Below are positions 7,532-60,211 of a stretch of DNA of 64,000 nt, piece after piece; position 1 is the stretch's first letter; the number at the start of each line of letters is the position of its first letter. Both the position numbers and the translations under genes were made by a program. The DNA is from an uncultured Enterobacterales bacterium. GTDB taxonomy: Bacteria > Myxococcota_A > UBA796 > JAFGLY01. Location: contig CAYZVO010000004.1 of NCBI GenBank assembly GCA_964481655.1, forward strand, positions 1,702 to 65,701. Direction: 5' to 3'. Under the pieces are notes generated by a model, which was not told the origin of the DNA, did no database searches, and saw only the letters and a program-made list of their open reading frames with translations.

Positions 7532-8554
7532 ATGCGCGTCCAACTCGCCATCCTTTGTTGCATCCTGCCCAGCACGCTGGCCGCCTCCTGCTACCCCAAC
7601 GGCGCGACGGTCAAGGACGACACATCCTGGACCCCGGTGGACACCGAAGGCGACACCGACACCGACGCCGACACGGACACCGACACGGACACCGACGTGG
7701 TCGACACCGGGACACCCTGGGACGAACGCAGCTGGCCCAGCTCCCAGGAGATGTTCATCGCCTTCGCCTACCCGGCGTCCCAGGAGCAACTGTCGGTCGA
7801 GATGGGCCTGCACATCATGGGGGCCGATCAGGTCGACAGCACCACCTGGACCCTCGACTACGAGGGCACGGACTGGACCATCCACATCGAGCGCAGCGCC
7901 GAGAACATGAACGAAGGCCTGCGCACGCCGGGCGCCGTCGTGATCTACGCCGGCCACTCGAACTACGGCCTGGGCGGTGTGTTCTCCGATCTGCCCGACT
8001 TGAGCCCCATCGAGGAGATCACCACCGTCGAGGACTTCTACAACTTCGGCGGCCCCCACGCGGCGATCAACTACGCCTACCTGGTCCAGGAGCAGGCCTA
8101 CCCCAACCTCGTCATCCGGCCGGACGACATCGCCGAGGACCCCGAAAACTACCTGGTCCCGATCCTAGAGGAAGAGCGCTTCCCCAACTCCGCGGGCGTG
8201 GGCGTCGGCGACACCTTCCCGCTGCAGGGCAGCGGCTCGAGCGCCTACCACTACAGCAGCGACGGCAACGCCTACCTGATCGTCAACGCGGGCGCGGACG
8301 ACATCCCTCCGCCCGAGGAACAGCAGTACGACGTGCTCTTCGTCAAGAGCTGCAACTCGGGCCGCTACTACATCGAGAGCTTCCAGCGCGGCGACTTCTT
8401 CTACACCATCGACAACGTCTACGCCGAAGAGATGGTGGTCACGGTCGACCTGTTCGTGAAGCACATCATCATGCGGACCCCCTACTGGGAGATCCCCGAC
8501 CTGCTGGACGAGCGCGAAGGCAACGACGTCTACGAGTGGGTCAAGATCGATTGA
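7532..8554 (+). CDS. hypothetical lipoprotein with (Asp-Thr)n linker
   Basis: Signal and lipobox ILPSTLAASC, then DTEGDTDTDADTDTDTDTDVVDTG. The globular part has AVVIYAGHSNYG ... VLFVKSCNSGRYY (a possible His/Cys pair, see findings). High GC3. Confidence 0.6.
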   Translation: MRVQLAILCCILPSTLAASCYPNGATVKDDTSWTPVDTEGDTDTDADTDTDTDTDVVDTGTPWDERSWPSSQEMFIAFAYPASQEQLSVEMGLHIMGADQVDSTTWTLDYEGTDWTIHIERSAENMNEGLRTPGAVVIYAGHSNYGLGGVFSDLPDLSPIEEITTVEDFYNFGGPHAAINYAYLVQEQAYPNLVIRPDDIAEDPENYLVPILEEERFPNSAGVGVGDTFPLQGSGSSAYHYSSDGNAYLIVNAGADDIPPPEEQQYDVLFVKSCNSGRYYIESFQRGDFFYTIDNVYAEEMVVTVDLFVKHIIMRTPYWEIPDLLDEREGNDVYEWVKID

Positions 8555-8567
8555 TCCCGTTCGCGTT

Positions 8568-9380
8568 CTAGCGCAGGTAGTCGAAGCCCTCGAAGTCCAT
8601 CTGGAAGCTGTAGCCGTCGACCTGGCCGCCGGACTCGCCGCTGACGCAGTCCAGCCCGCGGGCGTCCATGAGGTCGTTCAGGGTCTCGTAGCCCCACTTC
8701 TGCCAGCCCTCGAGCACGATGGAGAGGGCCTCGGCCTCGGAGATGCAGCCGGTGATGGAGGCGGAGACCTCGGCGTCGTCCTCGAGGAACACGCCAGACA
8801 TCTGGGCCTGGTGCACCGAGAAGCCGAAGCCGAAGCCGCCGACGTTGCCGAAGTTCATGGTGATGCCGGAATCGGTCGAGCTGAAGCGGCCGCCGTCCAT
8901 CACGTTGCTCAGGGTCATCGGGGAGCCCGACGCCGAGAAGTCGTACTCGCCCGAGTCGTCCGGGCCCACCGGCTCGCCCACGCCGAAGGATGAGTCGAAG
9001 GTGGCGCCGATCTCGCCATCGACGTCGAACAGGATGACGATGGTGTCCGAGTAGGGCGGCATCAGCCCCTCGAAGAGCCCGTCGACCACGTCGTTGAGGT
9101 AGTCGGCCTCGAGGAACTCGGTGAAGTACAGGGCCGAGACCACGAAGGTGGGGGACTCACGGGTGGTGTAGTCCGGCCCCGGATCCGTGTCGGTGTCGCT
9201 GTCGGCGTCGGTGTCCGCGTCGGTGTCGCCGTCGGCGTCGGTGTCGGTGTCCGTGTCGGTGTCGGTGTCCGCGTCGCCGTCGGGCACGTCCGTGTCGTCG
9301 CCGATCACGAGGCCCTTGTGGCAGGTGCCCGCCAGGGCGATGGGCAGGGCGGCGGCGAGGGCGAGGATCCGGAGCTTCAT
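8568..9380 (-). CDS. hypothetical lipoprotein with long (Asp-Thr/Ala)n linker
   Basis: Start trimmed to MKLRILALAAALPIALAGTC (lipobox), followed by DGDADTDTDTDTDTDADGDTDADTDADSDTDTD. The track ORF extends upstream without support. Confidence 0.6.
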   Translation of the reverse strand: MKLRILALAAALPIALAGTCHKGLVIGDDTDVPDGDADTDTDTDTDTDADGDTDADTDADSDTDTDPGPDYTTRESPTFVVSALYFTEFLEADYLNDVVDGLFEGLMPPYSDTIVILFDVDGEIGATFDSSFGVGEPVGPDDSGEYDFSASGSPMTLSNVMDGGRFSSTDSGITMNFGNVGGFGFGFSVHQAQMSGVFLEDDAEVSASITGCISEAEALSIVLEGWQKWGYETLNDLMDARGLDCVSGESGGQVDGYSFQMDFEGFDYLR

Positions 9381-11694: not shown

Positions 11695-14600
11695 ATGTCG
11701 TGCACCCCGGCACCGGTCCGACCCATGCACATCCTCGCGCTCCCCCTCATCGCCACCCTGCAGGCCGCCACGATCACCGTGGGCTCGGGCTCGAGCTACG
11801 ACCACGCCAGCATCCAGGACGCCATCGACGACGCCAGCGACGGGGACACCATCACGGTGGCCACGGGCACCTACGCCGAGTCCATCGACCTGGCGGGCAA
11901 GGAGCTCACCATCGAGTCCTCGGGCTCCACCTCCCGCACGGTCATCGCGCCGACGGGGAGCTCGCCCGCGATCACGGTGGACCAGGGCGAGAGCGCCGTG
12001 ACGGTCGAGGGCTTCACCATCCAGCCCAGCGGCGGCCGGGCCATCTGGGTCGAGGACTCCAGCCCCTCGTTCGTGGACCTCGCCATCGACAGCGCGGGCA
12101 CGCCGTCCAGCGGTCAAGGCGGCGCCATCTACATCTCCGGCGGCGCCCCCAGCTTCGACCAGCTCGAGGTCTCGGGCAGCCGCGCGGCCTACGGCGGGGA
12201 CCTCTACCTGACCGATCACGCCGACGTGCTGATCACCGACAGCAGCTTCGACAGCTCCCAGGCCACCTTCGGAGGCAGCGTCTGGGCCGAGAACTCCACC
12301 CTCACCCTCATCTCCGTCAGCGCGGTGGACGCGCGCTCCTCCAACTCGGGGGGCTGGGGCTACTTCGACAACGCCGAGCTGTACGCCACGGACCTCGAGC
12401 TCGAGGACCCCAGCGGCGACACCTGCTTCGGCGCCGGGCTGTTCGCCCTGGACCACAGCCACGTGGAGTGGGACGGCGGGGGCGTCAGCGGCGCCGTCGC
12501 GGACGAGTACCGCTCCGGCTACACCGGCGGCGCGGTCCACCTGCGCGGCTCGTCGACCTTCGACGGCACCGACCTGCTCTTCGAGGACAACCTGGCCTAC
12601 GCCGGCGGCGCCATGGACGTGCAGGACAGCGCCAGCGCGACCCTGACGGACTGCAACTTCGACGACAACGAGGCCTACACCAAGGGCGGCGGCCTGCGGG
12701 CCTACGACAGCGGCTCGGCGGCCTGCGACGGCTGCGCCTTCGAGGGCAACGTCGCCGCTGAAGGCGGCGCGGTCGATGTGAGCGTGGACGCCAGCTACAC
12801 GGATCAGGACGGCAGCTACGACGACAACGAGGCCAGCTCCGGCGACGGCGGCGCCGTCCGCGTGGCCGACGACGCCGAGGTCTACATCGAGGGCGCCAGC
12901 TTCGAGGGCAACGCCGCCAGCGAGTCCGGCGGCGCCCTGGCGGTGGAGGACCCGGGCGACGAGGACGTCTACCTGGTCAGCGCTACCTTCACCTCGAACA
13001 CCGCCCAGACCGGCGACGGCGGCGCGGTGGCCATCACCTCCGACGCCAACCTGTGGCTGGATCTGTGCAGCTTCGACCTCAACGAGGCCTCTCTGGGCTG
13101 GGGCGGCGCGGTGGCCTTCGATCCCGACAGCCCGGGCTACACCCTCGAGGCCAGCGACTGCACCTTCGAGGAGAACCAGGCCGACGACGGCGGCGGCGCG
13201 CTGTGGGCCAACGAAGCGGACGAGATCACAGTCCTGGACTCCGCCTTCCTCCGCAACGAGTCGGCCGCTGACGGCGGCGCACTGTACCTCGAGGGCAACG
13301 ACGAGGTGCTGGCCCGCCGCAACCTGTTCCACGAGAACACCGCCGTCTCGGTGGGCGGCGCCTACTACGAGACGGGCACCGCCATCAGCGCCGAGGTCAC
13401 CAACTGCATCTTCTCCGAGAACATGGCGACGCTGGGCGCCGCCGTGGCCCTCGAGGACCAGACCATCCAGATGGAGCTGGTCAACAACAACCTCACCGGC
13501 AACGACGCCACCAGCGACGGCGCCCACCTCTACCTGAGCTCCGCGACCATCAGCTTCGTCAACAACATCGCCACCAACGGCGTGGACGGCGGCGGGCTGT
13601 ACGCGGCGGACAGCGCCTCGGCCTCGGGATCCGACTTCTACTACGACGACGTGTGGTCCAACTCCGGCGGAGACTACACCGGCACCCTGACCGACCCGGT
13701 GGGGACCAGCGGCAACATCTCCGAGGATCCCCAGCTGCGCTCCTACACCCAGGACGGGGACGAGACCAACGACGACCACCACCTGGAGCTCGACAGCCCC
13801 TGCCTGGACCAGGGCGACCCCAGCATCGTCGATCTGGACGGCACCCAGTCGGACATCGGCGTGTACGGCGGCCCCTACGCGGACGGCTCCGACGCCGACG
13901 GCGACGGCTACTGGGACATCACCGACTGCGACGACACCGACCCCACCATCCACCCCGGCGCCGAGGAGACCCCCTACGACGGGATCGACCAGGACTGCGA
14001 CGGGCACGATCTGATCGACGTGGACGGCGACGGCTACGAGGCCCCGGACGTGGGGGGCACCGACTGCGACGACGATGATGCGACCATCTATCCGGGCGCG
14101 CCGGACACCTGGTACGACGGCGTGGACAGCGACTGCGCCGGGGACGACGACTACGATCAGGACGGCGACGGCTACCAGTCCTCCGCCTACGGCGGCCAGG
14201 ACTGCGACGACACCGATCCCAACATCAACCCCGGCGTGCCCGACACCTGGTACGACGGCGTGGACAGCGACTGCGACGGCCACAGCGACTACGACGCCGA
14301 CTACGACGGCCGGGACGACGTCGGCTACGGCGGCGACGACTGCGACGACACCGACGGCAGCATCTACCCCGGCGCCACCGAGATCCCCTACGACGGCCTC
14401 GACCAGGACTGCGACGGCGAAGACATCACCGACGTGGACCAGGACGGCTACGACGCCGAGGTGGTGGGCGGCACCGACTGCGACGACGAGAACGCCGAGG
14501 CCTACCCCGGCGCCCCCGATGACCCCTACGACGGCGTGGACACCGACTGCGACGGCTTCCACGACTACGATCTGGACCACGACGGCTACATCCCGGTCAC

Positions 14601-16857
14601 CTTCGGCGGCGAGGACTGCGACGACACCGACCCGATGATCAGCCCCGAGGCCGACGAGATCTGGTACGACGGCGTGGACCAGGACTGCGACGAGCACAGC
14701 GACTACGACCAGGACTTCGACGGCTGGGACAGCGACCAGTACGGCGGCGAGGACTGCGACGACACCCACGCCGACGCCCACCCCGGCGCCACCGAGATCT
14801 GGTACGACGGCATCGACCAGGCCTGCGACGGCGGCGACGACTACGACCAGGACGGCGACGGCTGGCAGTGGTCGGCCTTCTACGGCCCCGAGGACGACTG
14901 CAACGACGAGAACGCCCACATCCACCCCGGGGCGGTGGAGCAGTTCAACGGGCTGGACGACGACTGCGACGGCTGGACGGAGCTGGACGACCGGGACCAG
15001 GACGGCATGGCCGACTGGTTCGAGTGGATGCACGGCACCGACTACGAGAACCCGGACACCGACGGCGACACCCTGCTGGACGGCGAGGAGATCGACAGCA
15101 CCCTCGACCCCGCTGACACCGACGCGGACACCATCATCGATCCCCTGGACGAGGACGACGACGGAGACGGCATCCCCAGCCGCACCGAGCTGACCACCGA
15201 CGTGGACGACGACCAGATCTGGGACCAGGACGTGGACGGCGACGGCCTGCTCAACTCCGTGGACAAGGACGCCGACGGCGACAGCTACCCCGACCGCACC
15301 GAGGGCACCGAGGATCGGGACCGCGACGGCGTGCCCGACTACCTGGACTACACCGGGGACTACGCCGGAGGCGGCTGCGCGGCCCTCAGCGGCTGCGGCG
15401 GCGGCAACGGCGGCCTGGCCGGCCTGCTGCTGCTCGGCGGCCTGTTCGGCTCCCGGCGCCGGCGTCGGGCCACCATCTGGGCCCCCCTCGCGGGCCTGGG
15501 CCTGCTGCTGGCGCTCGCGCTCCAGCCCGGCGCCGCCACGGCGGCGGAGGACTACGACGCCGTGGACGTGCGCGGGTTCTGGATGGCCGACACCTCCGGC
15601 GATCCCCACCGCCCCGTGCGCCTGGCCTACCCCTCCTCGGGCACCGGCTGGGACGCCGGCCTGCTGGTGGACGCCGCCCGCAATCCCCTGGTCGAGGTCA
15701 TGCCCGACGGCCGCGAGGCCATCGTCGACCTGATGACCAGCGCCCACGCCTTCGGCGGCATCTCCTGGCGGGGAATGCGCTTCGACATGGCGGTGCCGGT
15801 CACCCTCTACGGGCACGATCTGGCGGGCGGCTTCGCCGCCATGGGCGACCTGCGGGCCGGGATGCACGGGCCCGCCGTGGCCCCCCGGGGCAGCGGCCCC
15901 GGGGGGGGTGTGGCCGCCTGGGGCTGGCTGCCCACCGGAGGCGAGGCCCGCTGGTCCGGCAGCCCCGGGGCCGCCGCGGGCGCCGTGGCGACGGTGGCCC
16001 AGGAGATCGGCCCCATCGGCTGGACCGTCAACGCCGGCGTGCGCGTGGCCCGCGCCGACGACGCCCGCAACATCCGCTCCGGGCCCGGCCCCCTGGGGGG
16101 CGCGGACCTGCACTACAGCGTCACCGACGCCCTCGCCGGGGGCGTCGGCGCCGTGGTCCAGGGCACCACCGGCTGGAGCTCCTGGCCCCTCGTGGCCGAC
16201 GCCCGGGTCCGCTACCGGGTCCGCGGTGGCGGCTTCGCCATCGCCGGCCTGGCCACCGGCATCACCGACGGCGTCGGCGCCGCGGGAGCGCGGGCCTACG
16301 CCGGCGTCGGCTACGGCCGGCGGCGCTCGGACTGGAGCCCCGCGATCATCGAGGCGCCCGTGCCCACCCTGATCCACGAGGTCACGGTCCAGCCCGGTGA
16401 GCTGCCGCTGGTGGAGCAGCCCCTGGCCTTCCTGGCCGAGGACCGCATCGTGGTCGGCGAGCAGATCTTCTTCCGCGAGGCCCGCACCGCGATCCTGCCG
16501 GAGAGCGAAGAGGTGCTCGAGGCCGTCCGCGACGTGCTGATGGAGCATCCCGAGGTCACCTGGCTGCTGGTGGAGGGACACACCAACTCCCGCGGCAGCG
16601 AGGGCTACAACCTCGAGCTGTCCGAGGGCCGCGCCCAGGCCGTGGTCGACTGGCTGGTGGCCCACGGCGTCCCCTCCGAGCGCCTGCTGGCCAAGGGCCA
16701 CGGCGAGAACCAGCCCCTGCTCGAGGACAACCACCCCGACGCCATGGTGGTCAACCGCCGGGTGGAGTTCCTGGTCCTGCGCTCGGACGAGACCCCGGAC
16801 GACGTGGTGCGCCCGGACCAGAACGCCGTCCCCGATGAGGCGTGGAAGGATCGATAG
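11695..16857 (+). CDS. giant secreted repeat protein: Pmp-type parallel beta-helix, 8 MopE-like Cys/Asp repeats, TSP3-like Ca-binding repeats, internal MYXO-CTERM-like segment, C-terminal OmpA domain
   Basis: Signal-like MHILALPLIATLQA (alternative ATG 11725). Repeated FxxN...GGA(L/V) units. Eight copies of DCDDxDxxIxPGAxExxYDGxDxDCDG. DxDxDG runs. GGGCAALSGCGGGNGGLAGLLLLGGLFGSRRRRR. The C-terminus LLVEGHTNSRGSEGYNLELSEGRAQAV...NRRVEFLV matches the OmpA_C signature. Confidence 0.8.
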   Translation: MSCTPAPVRPMHILALPLIATLQAATITVGSGSSYDHASIQDAIDDASDGDTITVATGTYAESIDLAGKELTIESSGSTSRTVIAPTGSSPAITVDQGESAVTVEGFTIQPSGGRAIWVEDSSPSFVDLAIDSAGTPSSGQGGAIYISGGAPSFDQLEVSGSRAAYGGDLYLTDHADVLITDSSFDSSQATFGGSVWAENSTLTLISVSAVDARSSNSGGWGYFDNAELYATDLELEDPSGDTCFGAGLFALDHSHVEWDGGGVSGAVADEYRSGYTGGAVHLRGSSTFDGTDLLFEDNLAYAGGAMDVQDSASATLTDCNFDDNEAYTKGGGLRAYDSGSAACDGCAFEGNVAAEGGAVDVSVDASYTDQDGSYDDNEASSGDGGAVRVADDAEVYIEGASFEGNAASESGGALAVEDPGDEDVYLVSATFTSNTAQTGDGGAVAITSDANLWLDLCSFDLNEASLGWGGAVAFDPDSPGYTLEASDCTFEENQADDGGGALWANEADEITVLDSAFLRNESAADGGALYLEGNDEVLARRNLFHENTAVSVGGAYYETGTAISAEVTNCIFSENMATLGAAVALEDQTIQMELVNNNLTGNDATSDGAHLYLSSATISFVNNIATNGVDGGGLYAADSASASGSDFYYDDVWSNSGGDYTGTLTDPVGTSGNISEDPQLRSYTQDGDETNDDHHLELDSPCLDQGDPSIVDLDGTQSDIGVYGGPYADGSDADGDGYWDITDCDDTDPTIHPGAEETPYDGIDQDCDGHDLIDVDGDGYEAPDVGGTDCDDDDATIYPGAPDTWYDGVDSDCAGDDDYDQDGDGYQSSAYGGQDCDDTDPNINPGVPDTWYDGVDSDCDGHSDYDADYDGRDDVGYGGDDCDDTDGSIYPGATEIPYDGLDQDCDGEDITDVDQDGYDAEVVGGTDCDDENAEAYPGAPDDPYDGVDTDCDGFHDYDLDHDGYIPVTFGGEDCDDTDPMISPEADEIWYDGVDQDCDEHSDYDQDFDGWDSDQYGGEDCDDTHADAHPGATEIWYDGIDQACDGGDDYDQDGDGWQWSAFYGPEDDCNDENAHIHPGAVEQFNGLDDDCDGWTELDDRDQDGMADWFEWMHGTDYENPDTDGDTLLDGEEIDSTLDPADTDADTIIDPLDEDDDGDGIPSRTELTTDVDDDQIWDQDVDGDGLLNSVDKDADGDSYPDRTEGTEDRDRDGVPDYLDYTGDYAGGGCAALSGCGGGNGGLAGLLLLGGLFGSRRRRRATIWAPLAGLGLLLALALQPGAATAAEDYDAVDVRGFWMADTSGDPHRPVRLAYPSSGTGWDAGLLVDAARNPLVEVMPDGREAIVDLMTSAHAFGGISWRGMRFDMAVPVTLYGHDLAGGFAAMGDLRAGMHGPAVAPRGSGPGGGVAAWGWLPTGGEARWSGSPGAAAGAVATVAQEIGPIGWTVNAGVRVARADDARNIRSGPGPLGGADLHYSVTDALAGGVGAVVQGTTGWSSWPLVADARVRYRVRGGGFAIAGLATGITDGVGAAGARAYAGVGYGRRRSDWSPAIIEAPVPTLIHEVTVQPGELPLVEQPLAFLAEDRIVVGEQIFFREARTAILPESEEVLEAVRDVLMEHPEVTWLLVEGHTNSRGSEGYNLELSEGRAQAVVDWLVAHGVPSERLLAKGHGENQPLLEDNHPDAMVVNRRVEFLVLRSDETPDDVVRPDQNAVPDEAWKDR
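13890..14975 (+). repeat. coding tandem array of 8 MopE-like putative metal-binding repeats (~38-40 aa each)
   Basis: ITDCDDTDPTIHPGA, GTDCDDDDATIYPGA, GQDCDDTDPNINPGV, GDDCDDTDGSIYPGA, GTDCDDENAEAYPGA, GEDCDDTDPMISPEA, GEDCDDTHADAHPGA, EDDCNDENAHIHPGA. Each is followed by YDGxDxDCDG. Confidence 0.8.
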
Positions 16858-16890
16858 GGACAGGGCGACGCCTGGGCCCGGCCCGAGGGA

Positions 16891-16928
16891 GCTGATAGGC
16901 GACAGCTGACAGCTGACAGCTGACAGCT
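16891..16928. repeat. family A heptamer array (GCTGACA)n, solo arm
   Basis: GCTGATA GGCGACA GCTGACA GCTGACA GCTGACA GCT, lying between stop 16857 and start 16938. Confidence 0.85.
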
Positions 16929-16937
16929 CGGAGCCCC

Positions 16938-17831
16938 ATGCTCTCCTGGACCAAAGCCGGGGCCGTCAAGCGGCCCCCCCCCCTGCAGATCCGCGTGCAG
17001 CGCCGCTACCCGGACCGGGTGCGCGCGGGGGCTCCCCTGCCCACCCGCAGCCTGTCCCGGGCCGAGCTGCTCGCCAACCTGCGGCACTTCACCGAGGGCA
17101 AGCGGGGCCCGCGCACCGCGCCCTGCACCACCCTGGTGCTCTCGGGGGTCGGGCTGCTGGCCTCGCCGGACACCGCGCCGGTGCTCGAGGCCGCTCGCGA
17201 GCTCGGCATCGAGCACGTGGTGCTGCACGCTGGCACCGAGGACCTGGCCGGCTTCGACGCCGCCCCCTGGAGCGCGCTGGTGGACGTCCTGGTGGTCCCC
17301 CTGCAGCCGGGCCGGGGCGACGCGCTGCTGGAGCATGGCGCGCGAGCGGTCGCCGCCTGTCGGGAGGCGGGCATCGAGGTGGCCGCCAACACCGTGCTCC
17401 GCGCCGAGGCGGTAGACGCCCTGACAGCCCTCGTCGGCCTGGTGCAGCGCCTCGCCCCCCACAGCCTGACCCTGTCCTACCCCTTCCCCAGCGGCGGTCC
17501 CCAGCCCGCCCCGCCTCACCCTCGGGCGCTGCTGCCTGCGCTGCAGCGGGCCGTGGAACAGCTCGAGGCGGCCGGAGCCGACCCACGGCTCAAGGGCCTG
17601 CCCGCCTGCTGGCTGGGTCCCCTCGCCCACCGCCTCCGCCCGTCGTCCAACCGCTGGTACGTCGACGCCGATCACCAACTGGACGGCGCGCTGCTGTTCT
17701 TCCCGGACGTGCTGGCCTTCCACAAGGGCGACGCCTGCCGCTTCTGCGTCAGCGACGGACGCTGCGACGGCTTCTTCGCCGCCTGGCTGCGCCAGCCGGG
17801 CTTCCCCGGGCTGGAGCCGATGGACGCCTGA
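16938..17831 (+). CDS. hypothetical protein, possibly a radical-SAM/SPASM-derived fold lacking the CxxxCxxC triad
   Basis: High GC3. LVLSGVGLLASPDTAPVLEAARELGIEHVVLHAG resembles the GGEP/TIM-barrel core. The C-terminal CRFCVSDGRCDG is Cys-rich. No N-terminal Cys triad. Confidence 0.45.
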   Translation: MLSWTKAGAVKRPPPLQIRVQRRYPDRVRAGAPLPTRSLSRAELLANLRHFTEGKRGPRTAPCTTLVLSGVGLLASPDTAPVLEAARELGIEHVVLHAGTEDLAGFDAAPWSALVDVLVVPLQPGRGDALLEHGARAVAACREAGIEVAANTVLRAEAVDALTALVGLVQRLAPHSLTLSYPFPSGGPQPAPPHPRALLPALQRAVEQLEAAGADPRLKGLPACWLGPLAHRLRPSSNRWYVDADHQLDGALLFFPDVLAFHKGDACRFCVSDGRCDGFFAAWLRQPGFPGLEPMDA

Positions 17832-20612: not shown

Positions 20613-20618
20613 CCCGGG

Positions 20619-20787
20619 AGCTATCAGCCGTCAGCTGTCAGCTATCAGCTCCGTTTCGCCAGCCGCAGCGCCCCTGGTGAGCCAGCGGCGTTGCGCCCCG
20701 TGGGCGTCGATCGGCTCGCGACGTCACTGGCCCACCGCCGGCGCGTCCGCCCGGCGTGACGAGGCTGACGGCTGACAGCTGACAGCT
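20619..20787. repeat. family A element: heptamer inverted-repeat arms flanking a ~110-bp conserved core
   Basis: Left arm AGCTATC AGCCGTC AGCTGTC AGCTATC AGCT. Right arm GCTGACG GCTGACA GCTGACA GCT. The core is homologous to the reverse complement of 36371-36482. Confidence 0.85.
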
Positions 20788-20789
20788 CC

Positions 20790-21584
20790 TCACTCCATCG
20801 CCAGCTTGGCTTCGTCGCCCTCGAAGGTGGCGCCGACCCAGTCCATGGGGGAGCTGGGGAGCTTGCGCACGAGGCGGGGGATGGTGCGCATGACCAGGCG
20901 CCGGTTGGCCTGGCTGTCGGCCTGCAGCTCGGGCTGGTGGGCGATGAAGCGCTCGCAGGCCTCGAGCTGGGCGGCGGTGGTCAGCGCGGTGGCCGCGAAG
21001 GCGCGATCCGAGGCGTCCAGCTCGATGTCGTCGATGCTGTCACGGAGCGGCTGCTCGGGGACCTCCACCGGCCGGAACAGCCGCGCCTCGACCCGGCCGA
21101 CGACCCGCGCCGCCCGGGGCTCGGTGGCCTCGAGGGTCAGGCGGTGGACCACCACGGCATGCCGCTGCCGGAACAGCCCATCCACGAAGATGGGCAGGTC
21201 GTAGTAGGCCCCCTCGACCTCGAGCTCGAGGGCGACCACCTGCACGAAGCCCTCCCGCTCGAGCAGCTCGAAGCGCACGGTGCCCAGGGCCACGTCCGAG
21301 GCCTCCGCCTGCATGCGGAGCAGCTGGGCCAGGTTCTCTTCTTCCCCAGGGAGCAGGGCCGGGCCGAGCTGGCCGCGGGCGGCGTTCAGCTGATCCGACA
21401 GCACGTCCGCGGCCCGGACCACGTCGATGGACTCCACCCGCTCCCGCAGGCTGGGCGGGGCCTCGGTGGGCTCGGGTGCGGCGGGCGCCAGCCACAGCGC
21501 CACGCCGCCCAGCGCCACGCAGACCGCGATCCCGGTCCAGATGAGGGGGGCGATGCGCGCGCGGGCGCTGCGGGGCGGGGCCAT
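20790..21584 (-). CDS. hypothetical membrane-anchored protein (PilO/GspM-like topology, weak)
   Basis: Single N-terminal TM helix IAPLIWTGIAVCVALGGVALWLA. High GC3. Starts 4 nt after the upstream lipoprotein gene. Confidence 0.5.
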   Translation of the reverse strand: MAPPRSARARIAPLIWTGIAVCVALGGVALWLAPAAPEPTEAPPSLRERVESIDVVRAADVLSDQLNAARGQLGPALLPGEEENLAQLLRMQAEASDVALGTVRFELLEREGFVQVVALELEVEGAYYDLPIFVDGLFRQRHAVVVHRLTLEATEPRAARVVGRVEARLFRPVEVPEQPLRDSIDDIELDASDRAFAATALTTAAQLEACERFIAHQPELQADSQANRRLVMRTIPRLVRKLPSSPMDWVGATFEGDEAKLAME

Positions 21585-26411: not shown

Positions 26412-26492
26412 GGAAGGTCGGGGGAGGCGAGAGGCGAGAGGCGAGTCGCGACCTACGACCGACGACACACGACTCGCGACCCACCTACGACC
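26412..26492. repeat. family B heptad-periodic palindromic element (short copy)
   Basis: GGCGAGA GGCGAGA GGCGAGT CGCGACC TACGACC GACGACA CACGACT CGCGACC. GCGAGTCG pairs with CGACTCGC. It fills the gap between stops 26411 and 26493. Confidence 0.8.
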
Positions 26493-28949: not shown

Positions 28950-29695
28950 CCGACGCTCCCGAAGAACGCCGAGGTGAGCAGGTAGTTCGCCGCGATGAAG
29001 ATCAGGATGGTGTAGACGACGGTGTCGTTGACAGCCCGGCCCACACCCGCCGCGCCGCCCCGGGTGTGGTAGCCCAGGTAGCAGCCGACCACGCCGATGA
29101 GGGCGCCGAAGACCGTGGTCTTGATGACCGTGCCCCACACGTCCGCGGGGCCGGTGAGGTTCCACAGCTCGGCCATGAAGATGCCGTGGGCCTCACCCTT
29201 CATGAGCACCGCCGTGATCCAGCCGCCGACGATACCCGAGACGCAGCCCATCAGGTTGAGCACCGGGCAGGCGATGGTCAGGGCCAGCACCCGCGGCGCC
29301 GCGTGGAAGGCCAGGCTGTCCACGCCCATGACGTCGGTGGCGTCCAGCTCTTCCTTGATGCGCATGGCGCCCAGCTCCGCGGCGAAGGAGGCGCCGCCCT
29401 GGGCCGCGACCAGGGTGCTGGCCATCACCGGGGACAGCTCGCGGATGATGGCGGCGGCCACGAAGGGTGAGAGCAGGCGCTGGCTGCCGTACATGGCGAA
29501 GATCTCGAGGCCCTGCAGCGACATGACCATGCCGAAGGGGAAGACCACCGCGATGACCGGCAGCATGCAGCGCATGATGACCGTGTCGAGCTGCGCCAGG
29601 AAGCTGCGCAGGGGGACGCGCAGGGTCACCGTGGCCCACGCCACCCGGGCTGCGAAGATGCCGATGCGGCCCATCAGCTCGAGCGTAGCGACCAT
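28946..29695 (-). CDS. MlaE/YrbE-family ABC permease (copy 1, paralogue)
   Basis: Start trimmed to MVATLELMGRIG (ATG 29695). MRIKEELDATDVMGVD and GAAGVGRAVNDTVV. Confidence 0.8.
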   Translation of the reverse strand: MVATLELMGRIGIFAARVAWATVTLRVPLRSFLAQLDTVIMRCMLPVIAVVFPFGMVMSLQGLEIFAMYGSQRLLSPFVAAAIIRELSPVMASTLVAAQGGASFAAELGAMRIKEELDATDVMGVDSLAFHAAPRVLALTIACPVLNLMGCVSGIVGGWITAVLMKGEAHGIFMAELWNLTGPADVWGTVIKTTVFGALIGVVGCYLGYHTRGGAAGVGRAVNDTVVYTILIFIAANYLLTSAFFGSVG

Positions 29696-29792
29696 CCTTC
29701 CTCGCGGCGGACGCGACCATGGGCGGTCACGCAGGCCCGCTCCGGTTAATCCCCCGGCTCGACCCGGGCGAGCCAGCCCGACCGGAGCTCCC

Positions 29793-30170
29793 ATGTCCCG
29801 TCACGCCATCATCACCCTCCTCTTCTCCGCGCTGCTGATCCCCTCCGTCGCCCAGGCCGAGGACGCCTGGATCCTCGAGGACATCGAGGCCCTGCGCTGG
29901 CCCGACGCCGAGCAGGTCTCCGTGGTGCTCGAGCCCGGTGACAAGGTCACCGTGGTCTACAAGGCCGACGGCATGGTGCGCGTGCGCAAGGGCGCCGAGT
30001 TCGGCTGGGTGCCCGAGGCCAAGCTGGGCGACAGCGATCCCAGCCCCGCGGCCGCCGAGGACGATCCCTGGGCCATCCCGGACATGCCCACCCTGGACAT
30101 CCCGGGCCTGGACGCCGAGCCCGCCGCCGAGCCCGCCCCGGAAGCCGCGCCCGAAGCGCCGGCGGAGTAG
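29793..30170 (+). CDS. small secreted protein, SH3-like core plus Pro/Ala/Glu-rich tail
   Basis: ATG 29793. Signal MSRHAIITLLFSALLIPSVAQA. GDKVTVVYKADGMVRVRKGAEFGWVPEAKL resembles bacterial SH3. Confidence 0.55.
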   Translation: MSRHAIITLLFSALLIPSVAQAEDAWILEDIEALRWPDAEQVSVVLEPGDKVTVVYKADGMVRVRKGAEFGWVPEAKLGDSDPSPAAAEDDPWAIPDMPTLDIPGLDAEPAAEPAPEAAPEAPAE

Positions 30171-30369
30171 GGCGGGAGGTCGAACGCGGGTCGCAGGAGG
30201 CGAGTCGTCGGAGGCGAGTCGCGAGTCGCGAGTCGATGAAGGTCAGAGGTGGGTCGACCTACGACCTACGACCATCCTCCATCGCCCCACCTTGCTCGAC
30301 TCGCGACTGGCGACTGGCGACTGGCGACCCACGACTCGCGTCCTCCCTCCCACCACGCTCCCGTCTGCG
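30171..30369. repeat. family B heptad-periodic palindromic element (full copy)
   Basis: Left half has AGTCGNN heptads, centre is CGAGTCGATGAAGGTCAGAGGTGGGTCGA, right half has NNNCGAC heptads (CTACGAC x2, TGGCGAC x3). It fills the gap between stops 30170 and 30370. Confidence 0.85.
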
Positions 30370-31017
30370 TCAGTACGCGACCGGCAGCGCCTCATCCAGC
30401 TCGAAGACCGTCACACCCACGGTGATGCTGCTGGCGCCGCGGCTGGTCCACACCACCATCAGCACCGGCACGCCGTCGGGCTCGGCCTCGGCCACCAGGC
30501 CGCGGCAGGGGACCGCGGGGACGGGCAGCACGCCGTGCCCGACCTCGTCGCCGTCGCGGGTGACGATGACGTCGGGGGCGGCCATCGGGGCCTTGCGCTC
30601 GACCCGGACCTGCTCGAGGCGGCCGTCGCCGCCCAGGTCGCCCCGGGCCAGGACCTCGCGGCTGATGACCGCGGGCTGGTGGGGTTGGCCCTGCTCGTCG
30701 AGGCAGCCGTCGCTCAAGACCTCGTAGTCGTCCAGCTGCTCCGGCACGGTCGCGAGGGAGTCACCCTCGAGGGGCCGCACGGCCGGCCGGCCCTGCAGCG
30801 AGGGGTGTCCCACCAGCAGCTGGCCCGGCTTGTACAACACCACACCGTCCACCGCGGTGACCGAGGCCCGCTGTCGCAGCTCGGGGGTGGCGGGCCCGGA
30901 CTCCTGGGCCCACACCGGCGCGCTGGCCAGGGAGAGCAGGATGGTGAGGACGGCGGCGGCCAGGGTCTGCAAGAGCGCTCCGTGTTCAGCGGGATCAACC
31001 CGCGAGCACGGCTGCAT
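30370..31017 (-). CDS. hypothetical secreted protein
   Basis: Signal-like LLQTLAAAVLTILLSLASAPVWAQE. High GC3. No recognisable family. Confidence 0.5.
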   Translation of the reverse strand: MQPCSRVDPAEHGALLQTLAAAVLTILLSLASAPVWAQESGPATPELRQRASVTAVDGVVLYKPGQLLVGHPSLQGRPAVRPLEGDSLATVPEQLDDYEVLSDGCLDEQGQPHQPAVISREVLARGDLGGDGRLEQVRVERKAPMAAPDVIVTRDGDEVGHGVLPVPAVPCRGLVAEAEPDGVPVLMVVWTSRGASSITVGVTVFELDEALPVAY

Positions 31018-34546: not shown

Positions 34547-34661
34547 GTCCGCCTGGCAGGGTAGCTTCCCGCGCCTGACGCGATAGAAGGCCGTTGTCCG
34601 GTGGCTGTCCGGTCGTTCTGAGGATCGGCCCGGCGGCGACCCGAGCACCAGGAGGCTGCTG

Positions 34662-36344
<1,683 letters not shown>

Positions 36345-36345
36345 A

Positions 36346-36506
36346 AGCTGTCAGCCGTCAGCTGTCAGCCTCGTCCCGCTGGTCCGCGGCGCCGGCGGTG
36401 GGCCGGTGATGCAGTGGCGGTGCGAGCGTCCGCGGGGCGCAGCGCTGCTGGCTCACCGCGACGTTGAACCCGGCACAACGGAGCTGACAGCTGAGAGCTG
36501 AGAGCT
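36346..36506. repeat. family A element, second full copy in inverted orientation
   Basis: Left arm AGCTGTC AGCCGTC AGCTGTC AGCC. Right arm GCTGACA GCTGAGA GCTGAGA GCT. The reverse complement of the core shares GGTGAGCCAGCRGCGYTGCGCCCCG and GGCCCACCGCCGGCGC with 20651-20763. Confidence 0.85.
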
Positions 36507-36508
36507 CG

Positions 36509-44150: not shown

Positions 44151-44233
44151 CAGCGAAGGGCGGCGTTGTGCTGCGGCGACACGCCGACAGCAGGAACGTC
44201 GTCGCTCGAGGACGCCGTAGGTCGGCCTCGAGC

Positions 44234-52613: not shown

Positions 52614-52681
52614 CGGTCCAGCGACCGTCGTCGGCGTGGAGTGCCCGGCCCGCCTAGGTGGGCCGCGCCGTCATGCGCCCC

Positions 52682-58425: not shown

Positions 58426-58872
58426 CGCGGACGTCGCCTGGAACGAGGGGCCCTGCGGGGCCCCTTCGTCGCTTCAGGTGCCCCCGAAGCACCCGCCGCG
58501 CCGCGGTACGACCGACGCCCGAGAGCCCGTCTCCCGGGGGAAAAAAAATGTGTCGGAAAAAACGTTGACAAGTCAAGGCTTTACCGTGAATCCACCTTTA
58601 TAGTTGCTTCCAAGACCTTGAAATTGTCCGCGTATTTGGTGAGACTCCTACCCGAATGGTGCTGCGGACCCGCGCCGTGGCCCGACCCTCTCCACCCGGA
58701 GGTTGGACAGACTGGACTGGCTGCCGTTCCTGAGCCGCCGTTCCCGCCCCTTTGCTGGCGTTCTCGCTCGTTCCTCGCCTGGCTTGGGTGAAGCCATCCC
58801 GAGGATTGCCGCCGCTGTCACCCCCAGTCCTTCTGTCCTTCCTCCGGCCCCTTCCCCCGCCCTCAGCGCTTC

Positions 58873-59988: not shown

Positions 59989-60211
59989 CGGGCTGAGGGG
60001 TCGTGGGTCGCAGGTCGTAGGTCGTAGGTCGTAGGTCGCCAGCCGTGGGAGGCGAGTCGCCAGTCGCGAGTCGATGAAGGTCCGAGGATGGTCGAAGGAC
60101 GATCTACGACCCACCTCCTACGAGTTCCTCCATCCTCCCACCTACATCCTCTGGCGATTCACCTCTCGCCTCCCACGACTCGCCTCCCACCTCCAACGTC
60201 CAACCTCCTAC
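59989..60211. repeat. family B heptad-periodic palindromic element (second full copy)
   Basis: CGTAGGT x3. GTGGGAGGCGAGTCG (60045-60059) pairs with CGACTCGCCTCCCAC (60176-60190). The centre CGAGTCGATGAAGGTCCGAGGATGGTCGA is shared with 30171-30369. It fills the gap between stops 59988 and 60212. Confidence 0.85.

Follow-up and report, generated by a model that had tools for sequence, protein, structure and literature searches.

What kind of element fills the space between two convergent genes completely, keeps a period of seven nucleotides almost throughout and folds back on itself as a long palindrome? Such an element lies at 30171-30369 of the window, by which we mean the whole 64-kb stretch of DNA analysed here (contig CAYZVO010000004.1, assembly GCA_964481655.1; G+C content ~71%). 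The gap is 199 bp long and runs from stop to stop of two convergent genes, with 0 nt left before either stop codon. A preliminary description, made from the sequence alone, had recognised the heptads and the palindrome, had proposed a terminator, a stabiliser of mRNA 3′ ends or a protein-binding array, and had known of no family like it. The position between convergent stops is confirmed by the sequence and by stored gene calls. Four metagenome assemblies of the species carry the identical sequence of the element and, because they agree exactly, an assembly artefact is unlikely. The gap consists of head-to-tail 7-nt units, is non-coding, lies directly behind an open reading frame (ORF) and contains inverted paired arrays. 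It therefore belongs to the bacterial intergenic heptamer repeats, the function of which is unexplained.

The register is continuous from 30196 to 30349, where 22 consecutive heptads follow one another without a break, loop included. The left, G-rich arm (30196-30258) consists of nine heptads (GGAGGCG AGTCGTC GGAGGCG AGTCGCG AGTCGCG AGTCGAT GAAGGTC AGAGGTG GGTCGAC), recognised from the sequence, from periods 7 and 14 in Tandem Repeats Finder and from the phase of GTCG. The centre (30259-30293) provides five in-register heptads (CTACGAC CTACGAC CATCCTC CATCGCC CCACCTT) that form inner pairings and the loop. The right, C-rich arm (30294-30349) comprises eight heptads (GCTCGAC TCGCGAC, TGGCGAC three times, CCACGAC TCGCGTC CTCCCTC), delimited by a period-7 repeat of 4.6 copies with 96% matches, by the inverted-repeat pairs I1-I6 and by CGAC in phase 1; overall, Tandem Repeats Finder detects period-7 and period-14 arrays on both arms. 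All occurrences of GTCG between 30190 and 30253 are in phase 6, the sole exception overlapping its neighbour at 30207, and all occurrences of CGAC between 30255 and 30332 are in phase 1, an offset of +2 that is fixed by the junction GTCGAC at 30253. On the outer 5′ side, a segment of GGCGGGAGGTCGAACGCGGGTCGCA (30171-30195) belongs to the palindrome and folds by pairing with CCTCCCTCCC...GCGTCC on the right; its GTCG at 30179 is out of register and that at 30190 in register. The tail that precedes the stop of the minus-strand gene, CCACCACGCTCCCGTCTGCG (30350-30369), is not heptameric and forms only a small terminal hairpin.

Statistically, the period stands out clearly. Lag-7 identity in 30171-30369 is 0.57 (z 8.8 against 1000 dinucleotide-preserving shuffles), with further maxima at lag 14 (z 8.1) and lag 21 (z 5.9), while lags 5, 6, 8 and 9 do not exceed expectation. 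Across the 64-kb window, strong arrays have periods that are multiples of 3 (coding repeats) or equal to 7, and no other, so that 7 is the only strong period that is not a multiple of 3. The pattern (GTCGNNN)x5 has 5 matches in the window and none in 100 shuffles. The preliminary description thus read the heptads correctly, as well as the division into a left half with GTCG and a right half with CGAC, and its 7-nt signal exceeds that of shuffled sequence, a comparison that it had itself proposed.

The two 65-nt arms are 72% complementary. The predicted RNA fold of 30171-30369 has a minimum free energy of -119.4 kcal/mol on the plus strand (z -5.95) and -119.2 kcal/mol on the minus strand (z -5.37), a stability reached by 0 of 200 shuffles; folded as DNA, the element has -61.8 kcal/mol (z -4.6). 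The fold is imperfect but contains 69-71 base pairs on either strand, with a longest uninterrupted helix of 11-13 bp, which makes the hairpin of more than 40 bp given in the preliminary description a conservative figure. As the same description had stated, a U-tract is lacking: no T-run follows the stem on either strand, and a consensus terminator scan reports nothing at the element, which is thus a hairpin without the T-run of a canonical intrinsic terminator. Hairpin-plus-T-run terminators are not enriched in the window at large either (2 found, 2.5 expected). Asymmetry in G-U pairing was considered as an indicator of the transcribed strand and is uninformative, since the fold z-scores are equal on both strands. 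A search of the window against Rfam 15 gave no hit at the gathering score; at a permissive threshold only eukaryotic miRNA-precursor models were returned, matching as generic long hairpins.

The hairpin has a simple logic at the level of the unit. The common unit of this family, termed Family B, is a palindromic hexamer plus one base, TCGCGA+G in the left arm and TCGCGA+C in the right arm, the two being joined via GTCGAC. In a second family of the window, Family A, the left arm is made of CAGCTG+T and the right arm of CAGCTG+A. Reverse-complemented, an array of this kind reads as itself save for the odd base, so that two complementary halves can arise from one tandem run. A history in which one tandem run became its own inverted partner would fit the register that continues unbroken through the loop. 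A role of the hexamers as restriction sites or decoys was considered and rejected: outside the elements CAGCTG and TCGCGA are mildly under-represented (observed/expected 0.71 and 0.67), as are many palindromes, and this depletion is not distinctive among them.

There are six heptad sites in the window, three of Family B and three of Family A, one of the latter being a single arm. The second long Family B copy (59989-60211) lies between a convergent hydrolase gene (+) and a Big_7 gene (-); its minimum free energies are -103/-114 (z -4.1 on both strands) and its lag-7 z is 10.5. The short copy (26412-26492) lies between a convergent 161-aa gene (+) and mlaD (-) and has a lag-7 z of 6.5. Together with 30171-30369, the long copy between the 125-aa (+) and 200-aa (-) genes, these are the three members that had already been grouped as a small family, and the grouping holds. 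It had further been noted that the central block recurs at 60060-60090 with 3-4 changes; the recurrence is real, but it is located at 60067-60095 and shows 3 changes. It forms part of a longer block common to both long copies, 30189-30280 and 60027-60118, in which 76 of 92 positions are identical (BLAST: 82.6% identity over 92 bp, E 3e-22) and 13 variant heptads occur in the same order.

Periodic sequences resemble each other trivially, and two null models that preserve heptad composition were used for this reason. A null with phase-specific composition gave a mean of 42 matches and a maximum of 58 in 5000 trials, against the 76 of 92 observed. Shuffling the order of intact heptads gave a mean of 45 and a maximum of 68 in 20,000 trials, none of which reached the 75 of 91 observed over the 13 whole heptads. 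Because the order of the 13 variant heptads is shared, sequence comparison shows that the long copies descend from one array that was already diversified, and that this array was copied rather than grown independently at each locus. Among the elements of the window, copies have diverged by 17-22%. The minimum-free-energy folds of the two long Family B copies differ in the pairing of their inner stems, their right arms show rearrangement, and the arms are partly decayed, for example the right arm of 59989, which by inspection is strongly C-rich and G-poor. Every long copy retains a stable predicted hairpin on either strand (z -4 to -6).

Family A is a sister family that shares the architecture of Family B. 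One full copy (20613-20789), with AGCTGTC/AGCTGAC arms around a ~110-nt non-heptad core, is located between a convergent sigma-54 activator gene (+) and a 264-aa gene (-), and the other (36345-36508), in the opposite orientation, between a Ser/Thr kinase gene (+) and dnaE (-). The two are 78% identical over 158 bp and both contain the ~110-nt core, which may represent a structured RNA or, alternatively, the body of a MITE (a transposable element of miniature size with inverted repeats). The single arm, (AGCTGAC)n at 16880-16930 on the plus strand, occupies a gap between co-directional genes, with the start codon at 16938 just downstream. The Family B signature is absent from the viral contigs scanned, and BLAST of the elements against plasmids and phages gave no match.

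How old these elements are can be judged from related genomes. The sigma-54 activator and SppA of the window are matched at 100% on public metagenome contigs and have orthologues in related uncultured bacteria that are 64-77% and 81-87% identical, respectively. The contigs compared, from the JGI metagenomes 3300009008 and 3300007510 and the ENA metagenome SUTE22-1, represent at least four related species and are fully syntenic with the window. The gap orthologous to 30171-30369 measures 13 bp in contig L125, 40 bp in L127-129 and 5 bp in L131. The one orthologous to 26412 measures 5, 15 and 7 bp, with an unrelated element instead in L131/132, and the one orthologous to 59989 measures 13, 15 and 22 bp. 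At the site orthologous to 20613 there are 4 bp in L127, an overlap of the genes in L131 and a different hairpin or repeat in L125 and L130. The gap orthologous to 16880-16930 is 45-50 bp long in the relatives and contains no heptads. Filled and empty sites can thus be compared at five orthologous positions, four of which are convergent stop-to-stop gaps. In 136.7 kb of syntenic DNA from the relatives there is no period-7 array, against 8 in the 64-kb window. All species have the same flanking stop codons, which implies that the elements were added between intact ancestral stops. Because the orthologous gaps are tiny and free of period-7 arrays, the heptad elements are, on this comparison, a recent lineage-specific gain, later than the split of this species from its sequenced relatives, and not a conserved regulatory device.

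The relatives' gaps are not always bare. In the gap orthologous to 26412, L131 (16992-17119) and L132 (16992-17127) contain 8-nt units of GGACTAGG that differ by one copy between the samples and adjoin a 27-bp perfect AT-rich palindrome; the sigma-54 activator of this species is 65% identical to that of the window. In the gap orthologous to 20613, L125 (11462-11526) and L130 (5947-6087) have the motif GGCGCTCGCT[GA]CGCTCGGC in common, which in L130 lies inside a 42-bp direct repeat present twice and is accompanied by short heptad-like runs (GCTGACAGCTAC, CCGTAGCCGTAGCC). It seems that convergent gaps are filled by an element particular to each lineage.

The placement of the elements is strongly biased. 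Five of the six lie in convergent stop-to-stop gaps, which, with the elements excluded, amount to ~2.8% of intergenic sequence, and random intergenic placement would give this result with P ~1e-7 (gene starts being approximate). These figures rest on a gene map made from database gene calls and, for the rest of the window, from third-position G+C content, and they supply the enrichment test at convergent 3′ ends for which the preliminary description had called. Copies scattered at random, including inside genes, which would have spoken against its proposal, are not seen in the window; the sixth element lies in a co-directional gap. The window has ~11 convergent junctions, of which five contain heptad elements, two contain simple hairpins and four are gaps of 16 bp or less. 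Among convergent gaps longer than 20 bp, a heptad element is thus present in 5 of 7. The two that lack one (44151-44233 and 52614-52681) each carry a simple 8-9-bp GC hairpin (GCTCGAGG...CCTCGAGC and CGGCCCGCC..GGTGGGCCG) with neither a U-tract nor heptads. Co-directional and divergent gaps of 300-960 bp hold no heptad element, and the additional 9.3 kb beyond the window end has neither an element nor an open convergent gap.

Heptad arrays are also found far outside this lineage. With one genome per species, the pattern (GTCGNNN)x5 marks at least 120 loci, and the matches listed include Acidobacteriota, Gemmatimonadota, Bacteroidota, Verrucomicrobiota, Planctomycetota, Chloroflexota, Cyanobacteria, Streptomyces, Myxococcota and others. 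Among these matches, an inverted partner within 400 nt accompanies 12-21 of the 101 arrays with full flanks, compared with 2-7 in controls. Crude ORF-based classing of 88 arrays among the matches listed placed 34 in convergent, 37 in co-directional and 4 in divergent gaps and 9 inside genes, so that arrays elsewhere also appear biased towards gene 3′ ends, on this crude ORF calling. The architecture as a whole recurs across phyla. In a groundwater Deltaproteobacteria metagenome-assembled genome (MAG; locus L055, 600-1060), outer arms of (AGTCGTC)5/(GACGACT)7 behind a stop codon enclose two inner heptad hairpins, GGTCGAA/TTCGACC. In a Sediminibacterium MAG (locus L117, 2195-2385; 46% GC), a ~200-bp (GTCGTAA)n/(TTACGAC)n palindrome between co-directional genes matches the nhmmer profile of Family B. 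The scans were rejected as proof of a preference for period 7, given that in viral contigs a period-8 control pattern is abundant as well as the heptad pattern. They establish that arrays of heptads are frequent and broadly distributed; that heptads are over-represented rests on the literature and on the analysis within the window.

This literature corrects two statements of the preliminary description, which had called a period of 7 nt unusual and had known of no described family. Rehm et al. (2015, PMC4692102), citing Mrazek et al. (2007), name heptamers as the over-represented unit of long simple sequence repeats in many bacteria, and pass on the suggestion of the cited paper that the excess reflects the DNA segment held by the polymerase. 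In Xanthomonas, ~185 GGGAATC arrays have been found, 89-93% of them intergenic and with a mean distance of 28 nt from the upstream ORF (PMC4692102). They include 70-75 inverted pairs with the potential to form stem-loops, are mostly transcribed, differ between sister species and have been assigned no function (PMC4692102). Hairpins that cyanobacterial STRR sequences form from 7-bp units are described as "possibly involved in transcript stability" (PMC2670836), and further heptamer families occur in Beggiatoaceae (PMC4679880), Geobacter (PMC2700814) and Nostoc (bioRxiv 2022.06.06.494920).

The elements of the window resemble the Xanthomonas GGGAATC and Nostoc GGGGA(C/T)T repeats in their tandem 7-nt units, their intergenic position behind an ORF, their inverted pairs, their depletion between divergent genes and the variation of length and sequence among related species (PMC4692102). 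They differ in that the Xanthomonas and Nostoc units contain a G-tract and form G-quadruplexes, whereas the units here are a palindromic hexamer plus one base and have no G-quadruplex potential. Only 16% of those repeats lie between convergent genes, against 5 of 6 here, and in contrast to both groups the whole ~155-nt element, loop included, is in one register here and the copies share the order of their variant heptads. The cyanobacterial STRR sequences are likewise 7-bp tandem units that are intergenic, capable of forming hairpins (for example at hupS-hupL) and proposed to stabilise transcripts (PMC2670836). They belong, however, to another phylum, have AT-richer units and usually form single arrays between co-transcribed genes, rather than filling convergent gaps from stop to stop. 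Such heptanucleotide sequences of cyanobacteria were reportedly treated by Mazel and co-workers as early as 1990. The earlier descriptions contain neither these particular units with their hexamer-plus-one logic nor the single register, the common order of heptads and a placement almost exclusively between convergent genes.

Three other classes of repeat or signal invite comparison. REP, BIME and REPIN elements, reportedly the subject of work by Higgins (1982), Nunvar (2010) and Bertels and Rainey (2011), are extragenic imperfect palindromes with known roles in the protection of mRNA 3′ ends and as binding sites for gyrase or IHF. The heptad elements are like them in their inverted pairs, long hairpins and lineage-specific families, and in their position at gene 3′ ends, convergent junctions included. 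REP units, though, are 20-40 nt long with a conserved GTAG-type head, have no 7-nt periodicity and are mobilised by REP-associated tyrosine transposases (RAYTs); here a palindrome of ~180 nt is built from 7-nt units, Family B has three copies in 73 kb, and there is no RAYT among the proteins of the window and its flank. Bidirectional intrinsic terminators, reportedly surveyed by Ju, Li and Liu in 2019, share the GC-rich hairpin directly behind stops that is symmetric for both convergent transcripts. Unlike these, the element has no U- or A-tract, has a stem of ~70 bp instead of 5-15 bp and is not conserved at orthologous junctions. The third comparison is with MITEs and with Correia/NEMIS, ERIC and RUP repeats (PMC3184786, PMC10969869), which are also 100-250 bp long and intergenic, with terminal inverted repeats, dispersed diverged copies in either orientation and long RNA hairpins that affect transcript ends. 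Terminal inverted repeats and dispersed diverged copies are found in both families of the window, and Family A is present in both orientations. The differences are that no target-site duplication or parent insertion sequence was identified, that the arms are tandem heptads rather than unique inverted repeats and that Family B is periodic throughout.

Taken together, we consider it somewhat probable that the element is a composite: a lineage-specific, REP- or MITE-like heptad palindrome that is tolerated at convergent junctions and acts there as a 3′ hairpin barrier for both mRNAs. Arrays would lengthen via slippage of units or hairpin-templated copying, following the general heptamer bias of bacterial simple sequence repeats, and whole arrays would be dispersed by a copying process of the REP/REPIN or MITE type. 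Copies would persist at convergent junctions, where no promoter or ribosome-binding site is hit. Each convergent mRNA would then end in a very stable predicted hairpin, which may impede read-through and 3′ exonucleases and thereby insulate the two genes, an effect that may be useful without being required. A role as terminator or 3′ stabiliser is plausible in the light of the predicted structure. Of the corresponding proposal in the preliminary description, the fit of position and predicted structure stands; the idea of a required terminator does not, since the relatives have gaps of 4-40 bp without the element. Several observations weigh against this composite reading. Any function must be dispensable, as relatives manage with gaps of 4-15 bp. 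To our knowledge, the RNA polymerases of high-GC bacteria tested so far need a U-tract at intrinsic terminators, and the element has none. As to dispersal, Family B has only its three copies in the 73 kb of window and flank, the one match of a 20-nt Family B core in a metagenome scan is a chance hit within a gene from an unrelated organism, no transposase or RAYT is encoded among the proteins of the window and flanks, and comparison of filled and empty orthologous sites reveals no recognisable target-site duplication, the relatives being too diverged for exact breakpoints. Slippage predicts variation, yet heptad number is invariant among the four assemblies of the species, which possibly sample one population. 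Finally, the preference for convergent over large co-directional gaps (300-960 bp) is more than tolerance alone would account for.

The rival readings overlap with this one in part, and the probabilities attached to them need not add up to one. The element may be nothing but selfish or neutral DNA: a palindrome, self-expanding or mobile, whose survival is limited to places where it is harmless and on whose effects the cell does not depend. We regard this as possible, although rather doubtful. Its absence from all relatives at five orthologous sites with tiny gaps, the different lineage-specific fillers of those gaps, the 17-22% divergence of the copies with the partial decay of their arms (again the right arm of 59989) and the lack of a function found for the comparable Xanthomonas repeats (PMC4692102) all agree with it. 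It accounts less well for an element that is fixed and identical in four assemblies, for hairpin stability retained on both strands in every long copy and for several large co-directional gaps that hold none even though insertion there should be harmless; moreover, a strong hairpin in two 3′ untranslated regions affects the transcripts whether it is selected or not. A dedicated bidirectional intrinsic terminator of the U-tract-less "I-shaped" kind, evolved and maintained for termination, was the leading idea of the preliminary description and seems unlikely. Such terminators were reportedly described by Unniraman in 2001 and contested by Czyz and colleagues in 2014, so that termination without a U-tract is itself said to be in dispute. 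A terminator would fill convergent stop-to-stop gaps and form a hairpin on both strands, as the element does, and canonical terminators are rare in the window, where the other convergent gaps above 20 bp carry simple hairpins. Against this, the relatives have gaps of 4-40 bp with no hairpin element, a ~70-bp stem over 180 nt far exceeds what termination needs, the U-tract is missing, and one arm of Family A is found by itself upstream of a start codon.

Less probable still is an array of protein-binding sites at 7-nt spacing, recognised by a nucleoid protein, by gyrase as at REP/BIME sequences, by a REP-type transposase or by an RNA binder with a footprint of ~7 nt (S1 or a cold-shock domain). 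The strict register across the whole element and through the loop, and hexamer cores that are palindromic in the manner of sites for dimeric proteins, are what such an array would show; convergent junctions are said to gather positive supercoils and BIMEs to bind gyrase. Binders have also been proposed for other heptamer repeats (PMC4679880; bioRxiv 2022.06.06.494920). However, the heptads differ between Families A and B and widely among organisms while the period stays 7, which points to a copying mechanism rather than to one specific binder; positions that vary within the arrays are not conserved, and no gene for a candidate protein lies nearby. A Rho-dependent terminator, with the C-rich, G-poor 3′ arm of each transcript as the rut site, appears very improbable. 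The base composition of the right arm of 59989 would suit it, as would the succession of a G-rich and a C-rich segment in each transcript, but the C-rich arm is predicted to form base pairs with its G-rich counterpart immediately upon synthesis, whereas Rho reportedly needs unstructured RNA, and both the period and the palindrome would be left unexplained. More far-reaching than the composite reading, and in our estimate also unlikely, is the proposal that heptad palindromes constitute a widespread self-propagating class that colonises convergent junctions or is generated at them, with U-tract-less bidirectional barriers as the outcome. The 7-nt unit would then be the trace left by the mode of copying, which would act on hexamer-plus-one units either through slippage of the polymerase or through hairpin-templated synthesis.

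The excess of heptamers in bacteria has been noted since 1990 and 2007, with no accepted function or mechanism, and the locus offers three handles on it. Hexamer-plus-one units let one tandem array become its own inverted partner and fold as a hairpin. The shared order of variant heptads shows that whole arrays are copied between loci. The contrast between filled sites in this species and empty sites in at least four relatives, at five orthologous positions, shows that the gain is recent. Hairpins that do stop or stabilise transcripts would reveal how convergent genes are insulated in high-GC bacteria without U-tract terminators; otherwise, the window would present a clean case of selfish DNA confined to one harmless type of gap. 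Were the heptad palindromes indeed a self-propagating class, the window, with its sites filled here and empty in the relatives, would serve as a natural experiment for the old question of why long repeats in bacteria are dominated by heptamers.

The genes on either side of 30171-30369 both have orthologues in the relatives. The upstream convergent gene (29793-30170, plus strand) encodes 125 aa with no Pfam family and ends in TAG at 30168-30170; it corresponds to a gene call at 20639-21016 of the identical public contig L121, whose positions are converted to those of the window by adding 9154. Its orthologues in the relatives have 130-135 aa and end in an identical GAG TAG. A longer 357-aa ORF (29097-30170) was rejected as a real gene, being an over-extension across the mlaE genes of the minus strand with 0 homologues among 5.8 billion proteins, and the stored call is the one of 125 aa. 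The downstream convergent gene (30370-30972, minus strand; called on L121 from 21216) encodes 200 aa, again with no Pfam family, has its stop, TCA, at 30370-30372 and has orthologues of 200-210 aa in the relatives. The proteins encoded in the window (sigma-54 activators, a Ser/Thr kinase, MopE repeats), together with the labels of distant homologues at 50-70% identity, which come from MAGs assigned to Myxococcota or Pseudomonadota, hint at a marine Myxococcota-like bacterium.

Other repeats of the window are of a different kind. Hexamer arrays and a C-rich tract at 7640-7696, 9187-9283, 35934-36045 and 35694-35770 (GACACC x9.5, GTGTCG x14, CCCGAG x19) probably encode low-complexity protein linkers unrelated to the heptad elements; those at 35934-36045 and 35694-35770 lie inside the Ser/Thr kinase ORF (34587-36344). 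At ~58540-58640 (L134 4700-4800), an AT-rich island with a TTGACA-containing, promoter-like stretch lies in a 516-bp gap upstream of the hydrolase gene and is preceded by a GC-rich hairpin without a U-tract just behind the stop codon of surA. The repeats at 13923-14863, 138 nt and 414 nt in length, code for metal-binding motifs of the MopE type in a 1710-aa Beta_helix/Cu-binding_MopE/OmpA protein that is conserved in all relatives.

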